In this document: positions 241 through 32,040 of the stretch, piece by piece
Position numbering within the stretch: the stretch's first letter is position 1
Layout of the letters: each line of letters begins with the position of its first letter
Assembly (NCBI GenBank): GCA_964016885.1
Contig: OZ024745.1
Location: 53,010,001 to 53,074,000, forward strand
DNA: 64,000 bases
Reading direction: 5' to 3'
DNA from: Eledone cirrhosa
Lineage: Eukaryota
The notes under the pieces: model-generated
Told to the model about the DNA's origin: nothing
The model's input: the letters and a program-made list of their open reading frames with translations, nothing else
Databases searched by the model: none
Position numbers and translations under genes: made by a program

Positions 241-284
241 GGCCTTGATAAGCTTCAACAAAAGCGAAACATGTCATGTCGGCT
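241..284 (+). ncRNA. Type I hammerhead ribozyme, U3-A8 core variant
   Basis: GGCC-TTGATAA-GCTT(caacaa)AAGC-GAA-ACATG(t)CATGT-C-GGCT gives stems I, II and III and a GUC site. It is enclosed by an outer helix, 213-230 pairing with 292-309. Confidence 0.7.
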
Positions 285-431
285 TATCTCCCCTGTTTGC
301 TGAGATCAAAGTGAGTGAATTTGTCACTACTTTAAAACAATAGCTTACGGTCTTCAAAATGCTTTTAATTAAGCATAAAGTGTATTGCAAAATACATTAT
401 ATATATATTGCTATTTCAGAGCTCCAATTCT

Positions 432-513
432 AATATATATATATATATATATATATATATATATATATATATATATATATATATATATATATATATATAT
501 ATATATATATATA
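432..513. repeat. (TA)n microsatellite
   Basis: Direct reading. Confidence 0.98.
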
Positions 514-651
514 TTAGAGAGTGAGGTTTCTTTACAAGATGAAAAATAACAGAGGTGTCCTATTGCTGAAAATATAAGGAAAAAAGATTAACTCGAAAAT
601 GCAACTGGAGTTTTATTTTTTTTTAAATATATATATATATTTATTTGGATC

Positions 652-687
652 CTTTACCGGTATCGCAGTTCTTCTGCTTTTCAAAAG
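652..687 (-). ncRNA. Degenerate hammerhead-like motif (U3-A8 core, GAAA changed to GATA)
   Basis: Minus strand: CTT-TTGAAAA-GCAG(aagaa)CTGC-GAT-ACCGGT-A-AAG. Confidence 0.5.
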
Positions 688-1410
688 TAGTGTTGAGATG
701 GAGGCTCTGTGGTTTTTCTCACATCTGGTTGGTCTTTGAATGTTACTTGTTTCATATGGAAAAAAGTGGCTCGAAACGCCAGGTTTTTAGAGAAGTAATT
801 TGATTGCTTGGTGAATAAGTATAATAAATTTCGCGCAAGTTCGCGTTACAAAGTTCTTCAAACATATATTAGTGAAGTTTGGTTGGTTGATGCAGTCACC
901 TGAATAAACACCAGTTTGTTTGAATTTCTTTTTACTTTAAAAAGTGGCTCACGAAGGCTTTTTTTTATAAATGTAATTTGATTGGTTATAAATGAAATTA
1001 TGACTGTCACGTGAACAAGTTTATTAAATTTCGCGCCCGTATTTGGGAATTTATTTTGTAGCCTTTTAGAGAAGTTTATGACAAACAAAAGATAATGGTC
1101 AAGAGAAATGGGATAGGGAGAATTGTCCTGGCTCAGTGAATATGGCTTGTTCGCTGGGGTGTCAGAGTTCAGACTTTCTATTGAAAGTAGAGATATGTGT
1201 GTTTATTTGTGTGTATACGTACATACATATATGTATACCGACGTACAGCAGTATGTATATGCATACATACATGCACACATATATATATGTACGTACGGGT
1301 TTACCGAACATTTATTATAATGTTCGGTTTGTTTGTAAACAAACAGCCCGAATTAAGCAGTACAGTGTTCGGCAACCATCGTTGACATTTTGTTCAACAC
1401 TGACAAAGGA

Positions 1411-1453
1411 ACAATGAACTAGTTTCGAGCTTCTTAGCTGTCATCAGCATCGT
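1411..1453 (-). ncRNA. Minimal type I hammerhead ribozyme
   Basis: Minus strand: ACGATG-CTGATGA-C-AGCT(aaga)AGCT-C-GAA-ACTAGT-T-CATTGT, with a 6-bp stem I and palindromic stem III. Confidence 0.75.
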
Positions 1454-27878: not shown

Positions 27879-28150
27879 TAATGATTTCTGCTCTAGGCAC
27901 AAGGCCAACAATATTTCGATTAAATCGACCCCAGTGCGATATTGGTGCTTTATCTTTTCGACCTCGTAAGGATGAAAGGCAAAGCTAACTTCGGTGGTGT
28001 TGTTTGTTTTGGTTCTTTACCTTCTGAGGTCAAATCTCACCGCAGTTTACTTTGATTTTCATACACAAGGTGTGACAAATATAGTAACAATCGAGTAGTA
28101 AGGTCGACTTTCAAAATTGCTGGCCTTGCGTCTGACTTAGAAACCATTAA
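27879..28150. mobile_element. Two decayed SINE copies in opposite orientation
   Basis: A minus copy (TAGGCACAAGGCC...AAGGATGAAAGGCAAAG) is followed by a plus copy (GAGGTCAAATCTCACCG...GCTGGCCTTGCGTCTGACTTAGAAACCATTA). Both are related to 16598-16782. Confidence 0.7.
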
Positions 28151-29135
28151 TTTCCCTCATATTCTTATTGAATTTAATTTAATTCTCCTTTCTACAATAA
28201 AATAAAATGCTAACGAATGTTTGTATTGAGTGATTCGACAATACTTTTCGTTGTGACGAAGGTGAGCCATTGTGCTAATGTTAGTTGTATACGTTAGTTG
28301 TCGCATTAGCAGGTTTTAAATAAACACAAGTTCAATTATATTCAGGAAGAAAGGAATATATACTTTTTTTTAAATATCAGCCCTACTAAATTTAGGGTAA
28401 CTATCGCTTAAAATGTTCTTAGGGAAATTATCACCATCATGAACAGCATTTGAATATTTCAATTGATTAATGTTTGAGGAAATATACGATATAACAGAAT
28501 GTATAAGATTTTTTTTTCTCTTTTTCCCCAGACGTTTCTATCAATATGAATACTCTTGTTCATTCAGAATTGAAATACTGGAGCAATATAACATTTCATT
28601 CGTTTTACTATATATGGGCATGTATGTTTTGCTAACTTAGAATCAAAACCTCGTCGGACTTATGTTATGGTAATGACATAATGATTCCAAAATCGGGTCC
28701 GATCGATACAGATCGAACCTTCAGCTGGTCAATCGTAAAGGGCGCGTCACAATAAATTTAATGAAGATTTCACACCGTTTCCTTTTTATTATTATTATTA
28801 TTATTATTACACTCTGCTTAGTACAACACCAACGCCCAAATCCCGATTGTATAATTTTACTCTTCTATCCCCTGCGAAATTTTAGTGCAAGTAATTTACA
28901 TCGATACAACAACTGAAGAATCAAATTCTATTTTACATTAAAAAAGTAAACATTATATATGACAAAAAAAGAACGTTACATGAAATCCCATATTTACGGA
29001 GGTACACTATGCAATTACCGGTCCCTCCCTCCCGCTTATAAGAATGTCAGCAAATACGCACACCTTCACATTTATTCCTACAACCACTCTATTATTTTGG
29101 GACCCGAGAGTATATATATATATATATATTCTATT

Positions 29136-29720
29136 CTAGGGCGGGTAAAATTCCCGAGATCCATGGACGAGTTCTCTCCAGCCGTCTCTGTCCCTCATTA
29201 TCGCTGCCATGCCCTGCGTCTCCAACAGACCAGTGTCTCTCCTTAGGGCATCAACATACGTTAACCTTGGTCTTCCTCTTCCAGTGTGTCCATGTAGGGG
29301 ATCCCACAGGAGCACTGAGTGCAATGTCAAGTCCGGATGTCGGTGAGCATGTCCAGCTAAACTCAGTCTCCTCTGTGTCACTTTTGAGCTGACTTTTGGG
29401 AGGCTCCCATACAGCTCTGAGTTTTTCATCCTCAGTGTATACTGATTAATGTTCAGAGCCATCCTCACCATTCTCGTATAGCACTCATCCACCATCTGAG
29501 TGAGTTTCTTGGTCAGTGTCCAAGTCTCAGACCCGTACAGCAGCACAGACTCCACTACAGCAATGAAGAGGCGGATTTTCAGGTCTTTACGAAGGTCCGA
29601 CTACCACACCGATCTCAAGCTGTGGCACGCCGCCTAGGCTTTGCTCTTCCTCTCAACCACATCATCTTCCGTATTCCCAATCTTTGCTCCCAAATAGAGG
29701 AAGTCCTCAACGAATTCTAG
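29136..29720 (-). mobile_element. RTE-clade LINE 3' fragment
   Basis: ESVLLYGSETWTLT...RRLSLAGHAHRH...GRGRPRLTY, with upstream DFLYLGA; between TA runs. Confidence 0.88.
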
Positions 29721-30840
29721 TATATATATATATATATTTATTCTGTCTTTGCGCGTAATTGTTTTTCACCGCTCCTATTAATGACGCATTATATTCGTTT
29801 TTCCCGTTCTTTGCCAGCGAACGTTTCCACGAACCAAAGTATCGTCTTCCTGTCTTCCTCCGGTTGCAACGTTTTTTGAAATATCCACTTCTGCGTTTAC
29901 AGATTGACTTTGTTAGTTTCAGAAGATCCCATTAAGGGTGAAAGCAGCGATTCTTTGCTTAAACTTTAATCTGTTATTTTAATAAATATTTGCTCTACGG
30001 TTCTTATATATTTGATATATAGTTATCCTTATCGAGCCCTCTTTGGATTTTAGTCTTCAAATTTATTATTATTACTATATATATATATATAGGAGCAGTC
30101 AATTGGAGAGGCCATATTTGTTCAATTTAGTTGTAGTGATTAGTTTAGCTCTTTGCCCTCTAAAATAGTCAGAAAATGCAATTTGATTCAAGCAGGTGAT
30201 ATTACATTTACAGATTTCAATAATTATAAAGTGATTATAGCAAAATAACCTATGAAATATGTCTCTAAATACACATCCTAGTAATTGGCAAATAGTGATA
30301 TGCGGAGAAATAGTTATGACATGAAAAAAATATTTACTATGAAAGTTAACATAAAATACTACCAAATATCAATCAAGATATAAAAAAGAATTCTATAGAT
30401 GATAAACATATGTAGCGCATATACATATAGATGTGTATTTTGGTAGTTTGGGGAGAAAAATATAATCATTGGTGTGGCCATGGTCCTCTGCCAAAGTTCC
30501 ACAGACCCTGTATATATATATGTGTGTGTGTATATATATATATATGTGTGTGTGTGTGCGTGTGTGTCCGTGCGTGTGTATTTAGAGTGAAATGAAGGTA
30601 ATTGTTTGGCATAGTAAGGTATATGTGACAAATGAGACGAATGGCGTGACTTGTGGCTGGTAGTCTCCAATAGTTCGAAGCTTTACAACGAGTTCCACAA
30701 CACTTATTAATAACCACTCGTTGTAAAATGTTGACATAATGAATACCAACAACCAGTGAAGTCTTTCTCCTTTTCACACACACACACACACACACACACA
30801 CACACACACACACACACACACACACACACACATACTATAT

Positions 30841-31010
30841 ATATGAAAATATTCAGGACCACTACGGCTGAGCCCCGGCCGATTCGAATCTAGCTGTCGA
30901 AACGGCCGGTGCTCAGCCGTGCCTGAATCTTTTCATATTCTACTACCTCAAGTATTGAGTACTCTGGTGCTGAATGGTCCACTTGGTATCTTACCACACC
31001 GTCTTTGTTA
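30841..31010 (+). mobile_element. Mini inverted PLE end related to family B: hairpin 30841-30938 plus conserved 3' tail
   Basis: Self-complementary arms. The AAGTATTGAGTACTCTGGTGC...TTACCAC...CTTTGTTA tail is shared with 38530-38590 and 53006-53062(-). Confidence 0.75.
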
Positions 31011-32005
31011 TATATATAAATATATAAATAAACAAAAACCAGCATACATCGGTATATTCCGTTAATATTAGTAGTAGTAATTTTATTGTTGTGTAGTTTA
31101 TTTTCAAAAAGGTATGATTCGGATTTTTCCCTTGTATAAAGAACTTTTATTTTTACCCTAGTTATATATTTACATTTTTATTGCTTTGGTGTCAATATAC
31201 CTGTTATAGGTAGCATAAATATAGGCTTTATTAATACTCATAAACATCGCGGCCGATAAATGTTTTAAAAACCTAATATCCAATATAAATGTAAATAAAA
31301 TTGTAATATGCTGCCTCAGACGAAGAATCAAATTACGTCGTAATAATTTTCATCGAATACAATTTTACATTATTTATATATGGATGTGTGTGTGTGTGTG
31401 TGTGTGAGCGTGCACGCGTATATCTAAACAAAAATCGACAAATATATATATATATATACATATTTATATTTGTATATTTCAATACAACATTGAACACAAG
31501 CGTTTATGAAGCTCATAAAACAAGTAAGAAACTCAGACGTAACTGCAAATACAGTCGATTGCTATAAAAAATAGCTTAGAACATTGGGTAAAATACCCTT
31601 GAAGCCAGATACCCATTGAGCTAGACTAACGGTGAACACAGACACATTGTCGTGCAAGGAAATAAGACCACTAATATTTTCGTAATTCTTTTTAGAATAG
31701 CTGTTTGAAGATCTTGACTTGGCGGTTGGTAGGATTATTATAGATTTTAGTGGTAATAGGTCATAAATGTTACTAGATGGGGACATTGTTTCACTGGTTG
31801 AAAAAGTTATGTGAGAATTGGAAGGTTTGTTGGGTTTTAATAAGGAGGAGCAGACTATATATATATATATTGAATATATATATATTATGTATATATATAT
31901 ATATTGTGTATATATATATATTTTTGCGAGCAATGAAACTTGATGTGGATTTAACCCCCAAAACTCTTTCCGAGCAATATAAGGAACACTTGTGATTATT
32001 TATGC

Positions 32006-32040
32006 CCTTGAGAAGCCCAACTGGGCGAAACGTACGTAGG
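32006..32040 (+). ncRNA. Minimal hammerhead motif, U3-A8 core
   Basis: CC-TTGAGAA-GCCCA(ac)TGGGC-GAA-ACGTACGT-A-GG, with AATAAA shortly downstream. Confidence 0.65.

Follow-up and report, generated by a model that had tools for sequence, protein, structure and literature searches.

We analysed a 64,000-nt stretch of the Eledone cirrhosa genome (contig OZ024745.1, positions 53,010,001 to 53,074,000 of the forward strand), called the window in the following, which is AT-rich eukaryotic DNA crowded with (TA)n tracts and fragments of Penelope-like elements (PLEs). It holds type I hammerhead ribozyme motifs in which core nucleotides 3 and 8 are U and A (U3-A8) in place of C and G (C3-G8), and one of them lies in the 3' untranslated region (UTR) of a truncated PLE copy at 17010-17790. 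Both strands were scanned with a descriptor that required the core, no fewer than 4 bp in stem II, GAAA or a variant differing by a single change, a helix III of 3 bp or more, a UH site and 2 bp or more in helix I. Six U3-A8 motifs were detected, each named here after its first core position:

237-288, plus strand: type I hammerhead motif 245, core UUGAUAA at 245-251, stem II GCUU/AAGC, GAAA at 266-269, helix III ACAU-guc-AUGU of 4 bp that can fold alone, predicted cut after C280
213-309, plus strand: extended helix I enclosing motif 245, about 30 bp with small interruptions, -47.7 kcal/mol, z -6.97
647-692, minus strand: minimal hammerhead motif 684, core UUGAAAA at 684-678, stem II GCAG/CUGC, GAUA (A14U), palindrome ACCGGU, H17=A
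17202-17248, minus strand: minimal hammerhead motif 17240, core UUGAUAA at 17240-17234, U-U at the base of stem II followed by GCAU/AUGC, GAAA, palindrome ACCGGU, predicted cut after A17210, weak helix I
17985-18031, minus strand: minimal hammerhead motif 18023 (left arm of an inverted repeat), core UUGAAAA at 18023-18017, GCAA (A13C), ACCGGU-A
18101-18147, plus strand: minimal hammerhead motif 18109 (right arm), core at 18109-18115, stem II GCAUU/AAUGC, GCAA (A13C), ACCGGU-A
32000-32046, plus strand: minimal hammerhead motif 32008, core UUGAGAA at 32008-32014, stem II GCCC/GGGC, GAAA, 8-nt palindrome ACGUACGU, predicted cut after A32038, element end about 225 nt onward at (TA)n

All six have a Watson-Crick 3-8 pair and a helix II of 4-5 bp. 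The complete set YUGANRA-GAAA-UH is found in 245, 17240 and 32008, which keep the invariant A13 and A14. Helix III can fold within a single molecule at 245 alone, and the other motifs need a dimer. An earlier note on this DNA, made from the letters only, had reported five of these motifs with their stems. All five exist, with the minus-strand cores at 684 (not 680) and at 17240-17234, and the sixth (18023, minus strand) had been missed. The stem II pairs listed in that note are present too, except that GCCCA/TGGGC would leave a 2-nt loop, hence 4 bp are counted at 32008. The one-base variants of GAA that it mentioned occur as well, and they strike invariant core positions (A14U in 684, A13C in 18023 and 18109).

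The hammerhead motifs are real and in excess of chance. Block-wise dinucleotide shuffling gave a mean of 0.17 and a maximum of 2 U3-A8 motifs, and 0 of 100 shuffles reached the six observed. Under the same descriptor, four C3-G8 motifs were found in the window (1447 and 59952 on the minus strand, 2186 and the weak 23826 on the plus strand), and none with the cores U3-G8, C3-A8, A3-U8 or G3-C8. A looser scan added 40322 (plus strand) as a C3-G8 motif, together with three poor matches with unpaired 3-8 (9033, 31992 and 40816), which were excluded from the count. U3-A8 motifs make up 6 of the resulting 11 hammerhead motifs. Among 120 control loci from viral contigs that match both sequence boxes, a 4-bp Watson-Crick stem II was found in none and, with G-U pairs allowed, in ten. 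It is true that TTGANAA is itself AT-rich and that short folds of the motifs are not significant. Nevertheless, coincidental matching of so short a motif in an AT-rich sequence is a negligible explanation, given the shuffling result and the same motif at the same position in distant relatives, described below.

Rfam detects the 245 motif alone (HH9, 30.4 bits, gathering 52, E 0.0013). The Rfam microRNA matches in the window are below gathering as well and were rejected as microsatellite and inverted-repeat artefacts.

The host of motif 17240 can be placed by a protein remnant. The features of this copy are:

17010-17790, minus strand: 5'-truncated and probably internally deleted Neptune-type PLE copy with (TA)n flanks, member of a multicopy family
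17397-17776, minus strand: frameshifted Neptune-type PLE protein remnant with the end of the reverse transcriptase (RT) thumb, linker and zinc-finger-like motif, no endonuclease after it, E 2e-25 to relative P0001
17400-17412, minus strand: putative deletion junction at which GIY-YIG was lost, loose end at 17405, agreement 0.79, 11 X1 contigs

The linker of the remnant is of the C-x4-C-x2-C type (CX2-5CxxC class) and reads GRPNCGIC, with the first Cys replaced by Phe in the window copy. A pyrimidine-rich UTR follows on its 3' side and holds motif 17240. A full-library search with the remnant gave 78 relatives, of which 25 have the zinc-finger-like motif after the match. Where at least 130 further residues are available, 11 of 12 relatives go on to a C-terminal GIY-YIG domain (CxxC + YIG; 10 flagged by script and P0010 by eye), the 12th being a repetitive outlier; all other relatives stop too soon to show it. 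The closest relative, P0001 (58%), extends to where the GIY-YIG domain starts and is sister to the remnant with support 97/87 in a tree of 26 rows, which covers the thumb-endonuclease regions of the relatives and holds no Naiad row, a limit that counts against the placement. By eye, the order of thumb, linker and zinc finger agrees with the Neptune rows of the supplementary alignment of Craig et al. 2021 (PMC8557442). The relatives with an N-terminal RT region have DKG(G) in seven loci, and the sole DKAV is found in L129, whose near-twin L135 has DKGG; the DKA/CxC/IFD region and the core RT are missing from the window copy. Pfam gave no informative match for the remnant, and word-indexed protein searches with it yielded no useful hit among 45 candidates in one run and only the self-match in another. 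Read in this way from its sequence, the remnant at 17790-17010 has the Neptune domain order.

The earlier note had taken the 17010-17790 element as Naiad-like. On this view motif 17240 belongs to a Naiad with an N-terminal endonuclease, and a U3-A8 core, overlooked by previous searches, is in use among Naiads. The window copy indeed has no endonuclease after the remnant, (TA)n targeting is described as frequent in Naiads, and the Naiad survey is described as using CUGANGA strings alone (PMC8557442), which bears out the earlier remark that searches of this kind miss the variant. However, (TA)n targeting is also reported for Neptune (PMC8557442), and Naiads carry CX2-5CxxC upstream of GIY-YIG with both N-terminal to the RT (PMC8557442). 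The remnant is not Naiad because its CX2-5CxxC follows the RT thumb, as in Neptune, and the GIY-YIG of its relatives is C-terminal; an endonuclease-like C-terminus is also found at the junction in other copies. Furthermore, two octopus Naiad consensi are by eye unlike this 3' end over their final ~300 nt, and the string gaaaccggta had 0 matches in the searched part of the Craig 2021 supplement (PMC8557442). No U3-A8 hammerhead was found in the published Naiad consensus file among 24 passages with GAAA and one of six palindromes or among 8 passages with U3-A8 core strings, in a partial check by eye that covered few variants and lost matches across line breaks. The domain order largely rules out a Naiad identity of the 17010-17790 element, an outcome that the earlier note had itself named as refuting its proposal, and we give the Naiad explanation as a whole hardly any credence.

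Other copies of the family indicate how the window copy came to end without an endonuclease. Four DNA sequencing runs (X1, X4, X8 and X9) were aligned to the element at 80% likeness, with read-end piles from restriction site-associated DNA sequencing (RAD-seq) disregarded. The element is multicopy, with 1790 contig records in X1, 58 in X4, 2339 reads in X8 and 2580 reads in X9. The 11 X1 contigs that diverge at 17405 read LN, seven residues and a stop (reverse-complement consensus, translated by eye), which resembles the endonuclease ends of the relatives, e.g. PELNSNN-stop. Other copies have an endonuclease-like C-terminus joined to the same 3' UTR, and therefore the window copy likely lost the domain by an internal deletion. 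Across 17202-17248 there was no difference among the best-supported 40 of 140 rows, including none at 17240 or 17235, and in the same 40 of 140 rows changes private to the window copy were listed near 100% at 17167, 17170, 17265 and 17297. A 1-nt deletion in loop II occurs in 6-11% of the records in three runs. In the family of this element, U3 and A8 are probably the shared state.

The relatives carry the same motif with the other core pair. Related elements were found at 19 loci in a metagenome scan, and at 11 of these the sequence extends 250 nt or more past the end of the endonuclease. Of the 11, seven (four families by eye) have a minimal hammerhead 162-243 nt past the stop, and motif 17240 falls inside this range, at 165 nt from the inferred end of the open reading frame (ORF) at the junction. 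All seven are C3-G8, and six contain GAAACCGGU with the ACCGGU palindrome and also share a mismatch at the base of stem II that resembles the one in 17240. When 13 rows are aligned, the 3-8 pair is C-G in seven, U-A in six and unpaired in none; these rows were picked by descriptors and are related, so that they illustrate covariation and do not prove it, and the shuffle count for them is not to be read as a probability. A model built from the sequences of the 13 motifs alone detected nothing beyond L128, L135 and L137 and missed its own training rows 32008, 2186 and 40322. The comparison of 17240 with its relatives points to a compensatory swap between C3-G8 and U3-A8 at an equivalent site. 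The ancestor would have been C3-G8, and two transitions would have led to U3-A8 with the tertiary Watson-Crick pair retained.

Besides 17240, three further motifs belong to the same ACCGGU group. Motif 684 is alike to 18109 at 77% over 66 nt and to 17240 at 73% over 81 nt, and all of them end in ACCGGU-A. Motifs 18023 and 18109 are held by the following feature:

17862-18270, unstranded: inverted repeat of a PLE-type 3' end, 204 nt, 99%, ending in (TA)n, with motifs 18023 and 18109 in its arms

The repeat is best read as an inverted truncated arrangement of pseudo-long terminal repeats (pLTRs), which is known from PLEs (PMC8557442). Since 18023 and 18109 are arms of one repeat, and 684, 17240 and 18109 are alike, the six motifs represent five insertions in about three lineages and not the independent families of the earlier note; only 245 and 32008 stand apart from the ACCGGU group. 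Its proposal of compensatory U3-A8 hammerheads at PLE 3' ends held up: location in a PLE 3' UTR is indicated directly for 17240, by remnant and position, and by similarity for 684 and 18023/18109, which as kin of 17240 are probably Neptune-type too.

Motif 245 sits in a non-coding insertion of about 290 nt bounded by (TA)n tracts. Its helix III (269-279) resembles a 5-nt duplication which converts a dimer-type palindrome ACAUGU to a self-folding hairpin. One might see in it not part of a pLTR but a single unit from a non-autonomous non-LTR retrozyme, whose hammerhead would be near-canonical and monomer-competent. The long helix I, the self-folding helix III, the GUC site and the HH9 match would suit this, as would the unit of ~290 nt, retrozyme units being ~300 nt. 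However, retrozymes are tandem 170-400-nt units and no tandem copy of the 245 unit was found in the window, the (TA)n flanks suit PLE targeting, and a 5-nt duplication peculiar to this copy may have produced the 4-bp helix III. Moreover, retrozymes themselves have been proposed as PLE derivatives. We consider a retrozyme origin of 245 unlikely.

Taken together, it is very likely that the U3-A8 minimal type I motifs come from the 3' ends (pLTRs) of truncated PLEs, that 17240 sits in a Neptune-type copy with its endonuclease likely deleted, and that intact elements would cut their own transcripts as paired copies. The palindromic helix III cannot fold within one molecule, and in a tandem pLTR-ORF-pLTR transcript the two copies would pair via the palindrome; the predicted self-duplexes have -8.3 kcal/mol for ACCGGU (four motifs) and -9.8 kcal/mol for ACGUACGU. 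Such a dimer would cut after UA, about 200 nt before the 3' end of the element, and the cleavage would trim read-through RNA for retrotransposition. For published PLE minimal hammerheads it is described that helix III does not form alone, that the palindromes pair in tandem transcripts and that cleavage is slow (PMC4209133), and U3-A8 ribozymes are reported to be active in vitro (PMC3088659).

Several points weigh against this reading. A second core change is found in three of the six motifs (two insertions), and helix I of the ACCGGU group is weak, with 2-3 bp and a duplex energy of -1.1 to +1.3 kcal/mol vs -3.4 to -6.6 kcal/mol in the C3-G8 relatives. Folded in isolation as 71-73-nt pieces, the U3-A8 motifs show no unusual stability (z -0.6 to -1.2), and a long stable helix I is seen at 245 alone. 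No coding remnant was found beside 245, 684, 18023/18109 or 32008 in tblastn and hidden Markov model searches with the Neptune relatives, and none ties 245, 684, 18109 or 32008 to a PLE clade. Among the 11 relatives, four have no passing hammerhead, and partial polymorphism at U3 or A8 of the 17240 family may exist, the differences seen being the best 40 of 140 rows. The arms with 18023 and 18109 oppose each other and in one transcript would give a 204-bp hairpin and not a dimer. Published PLE minimal hammerheads are described as poor cleavers in vitro even as dimers (PMC4209133). Finally, cleavage of the U3-A8 motifs is itself a prediction from sequence.

These points bear on the strongest competing explanation, in which the motifs are relics of PLE hammerheads and no U3-A8 copy cleaves, the ACCGGU lineage decaying in an AT-rich genome and having been moved in trans. 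Mutagenesis work, alongside published hammerhead core definitions, indicates damage from changes at A13 and A14. Decay would leave changes such as A13C, which is shared by the two arms of an inverted repeat that is young (99%), A14U in 684 and a helix I of 2-3 bp with A-U pairs only, and 684 and 18023/18109 are likely inert. Yet both 3-8 partners have changed without a mixed core, which argues for selection on an active fold when the swap was fixed, GAAA is kept in 245, 17240 and 32008, and in vitro activity has been published for U3-A8 ribozymes (PMC3088659). The relic explanation is a possibility to be taken seriously, if a doubtful one. Motifs 245 and 32008, two lineages of their own in which GAAA is intact, are the most promising candidates for an active ribozyme. 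One could go further and propose that U3-A8 is the majority PLE hammerhead core in this animal and replaced C3-G8 at least 2-3 times independently, with surveys based on CUGANGA only undercounting, and that the ACCGGU lineage retrotransposes despite A13C and A14U, with the motif as a dimerisation or RT-recognition signal and not a cutter. To us this stronger version seems improbable.

The window contains other elements of these types. A near-intact PLE at 3248-8340 (minus strand) has a 741-aa ORF at 4114-6339 with a C-terminal endonuclease and a 1.24-kb tandem pLTR (3248-4488 / 6362-7602, 99.4%), and looks Hydra-type by eye. Neither a C3-G8 nor a U3-A8 hammerhead was found in its ~870-nt 3' UTR by the descriptor scan, the looser scan or the sequence-only model; Hydra elements are said to carry the hammerhead universally (PMC8557442). 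Fragments of a second family with 43% identity to this PLE and inverted ends lie at 35176-37743, 53005-54523 and 34824-35067, and no hammerhead in them passed the same scans. A second, decayed Neptune-type RT fragment is found at 10785-10487 (minus strand, E 3e-14 to L129). Remnants of Penelope-like RT and GIY-YIG that lack the zinc-finger linker are located at 20324-21862 (plus strand) and 34527-34841 (minus strand; Pfam RVT_1 and GIY-YIG). A common non-coding segment of ~70 nt with a (TA)n end, 79-82% alike, occurs in three otherwise different repeats (30928-30998, 38508-38588 and 53005-53066). The motifs at 1447 (minus), 2186 (plus), 40322 (plus) and 59952 (minus) are canonical C3-G8 type I hammerheads, of which 2186 has an 8-bp helix I and lies within an inverted duplication (1939-2081 / 2215-2357), and 59952 has a helix II of 10-12 bp. 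Remnants of a non-LTR retrotransposon RT (Pfam RVT_1) are found at 61574-63908 and 37735-38483 as a pair of related copies (89% along 534 nt).

The window motifs are of an already published type, and what is new is the family that hosts them. A U3-A8 descriptor was used by Cervera and De la Pena 2014, who reported ~1,300 matches in Cercyon PLEs of Schistosoma mansoni, beside ~2,000 matches with the C3-G8 minimal descriptor (PMC4209133). Like the window motifs, the Cercyon minimal hammerhead ribozymes are described as type I minimal motifs in PLE terminal repeats with U3-A8 and a palindromic helix III, mostly as solo copies of truncated elements, in close opposite-strand pairs and with U3-A8 common (PMC4209133). 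Helix II has 4-5 bp in the window and 7-8 bp in Cercyon (PMC4209133). In contrast to Cercyon, helix III in the window is a 6-8-nt palindrome, and the host of 17240 is Neptune-type with relatives that have a C-terminal endonuclease. No report of U3-A8 hammerheads in octopus or Neptune elements was found in the literature, with subscription papers and the 2014 supplement outside the scope of the search. Descriptors with a fixed CUGANGA would overlook about half of the hammerhead motifs in the window.

Naiads share with the window elements that they are PLEs with (TA)n insertion, inverted truncated copies and CX2-5CxxC, whereas their CX2-5CxxC and GIY-YIG are N-terminal, with CxC, DKA and IFD, and the window element has the motif after the RT thumb (Craig et al. 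2021, PMC8557442). None of this alters the description of Naiads as lacking canonical hammerheads. By eye, one Naiad consensus in File S5 of Craig 2021 contains CUGACGA, a long-looped GGCCC/GGGCC stem and GAAACGU-G, i.e. a C3-G8 core with a long stem II insertion and G17 (PMC8557442).

A further close system is Neptune, with RT, CX2-5CxxC linker and C-terminal GIY-YIG. The 17240 element shares its order of thumb, linker and zinc finger, DKG in the relatives and (TA)n flanks and, like the Neptune families L122, L123 and L129, has its hammerhead 160-245 nt past the stop with the ACCGGU palindrome. It differs by U3-A8 and H17=A, as opposed to C3-G8 and H17=U in all seven Neptune relatives with the motif, and this copy has a weaker helix I and no endonuclease. 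The window offers a natural compensatory swap, at an equivalent site in a single PLE clade, from C3-G8 to U3-A8, and its natural series of intact, A13C and A14U motifs suits the question whether PLE hammerheads have to cleave in order to be of use. The U3-A8 hammerheads of Perreault et al. 2011, a natural covariation, share with 17240 both the compensatory pair and the U10.1-U11.1 mismatch at the base of stem II; the pair was called rare there, whereas it is found in 6 of 11 motifs within 64 kb here (PMC3088659).

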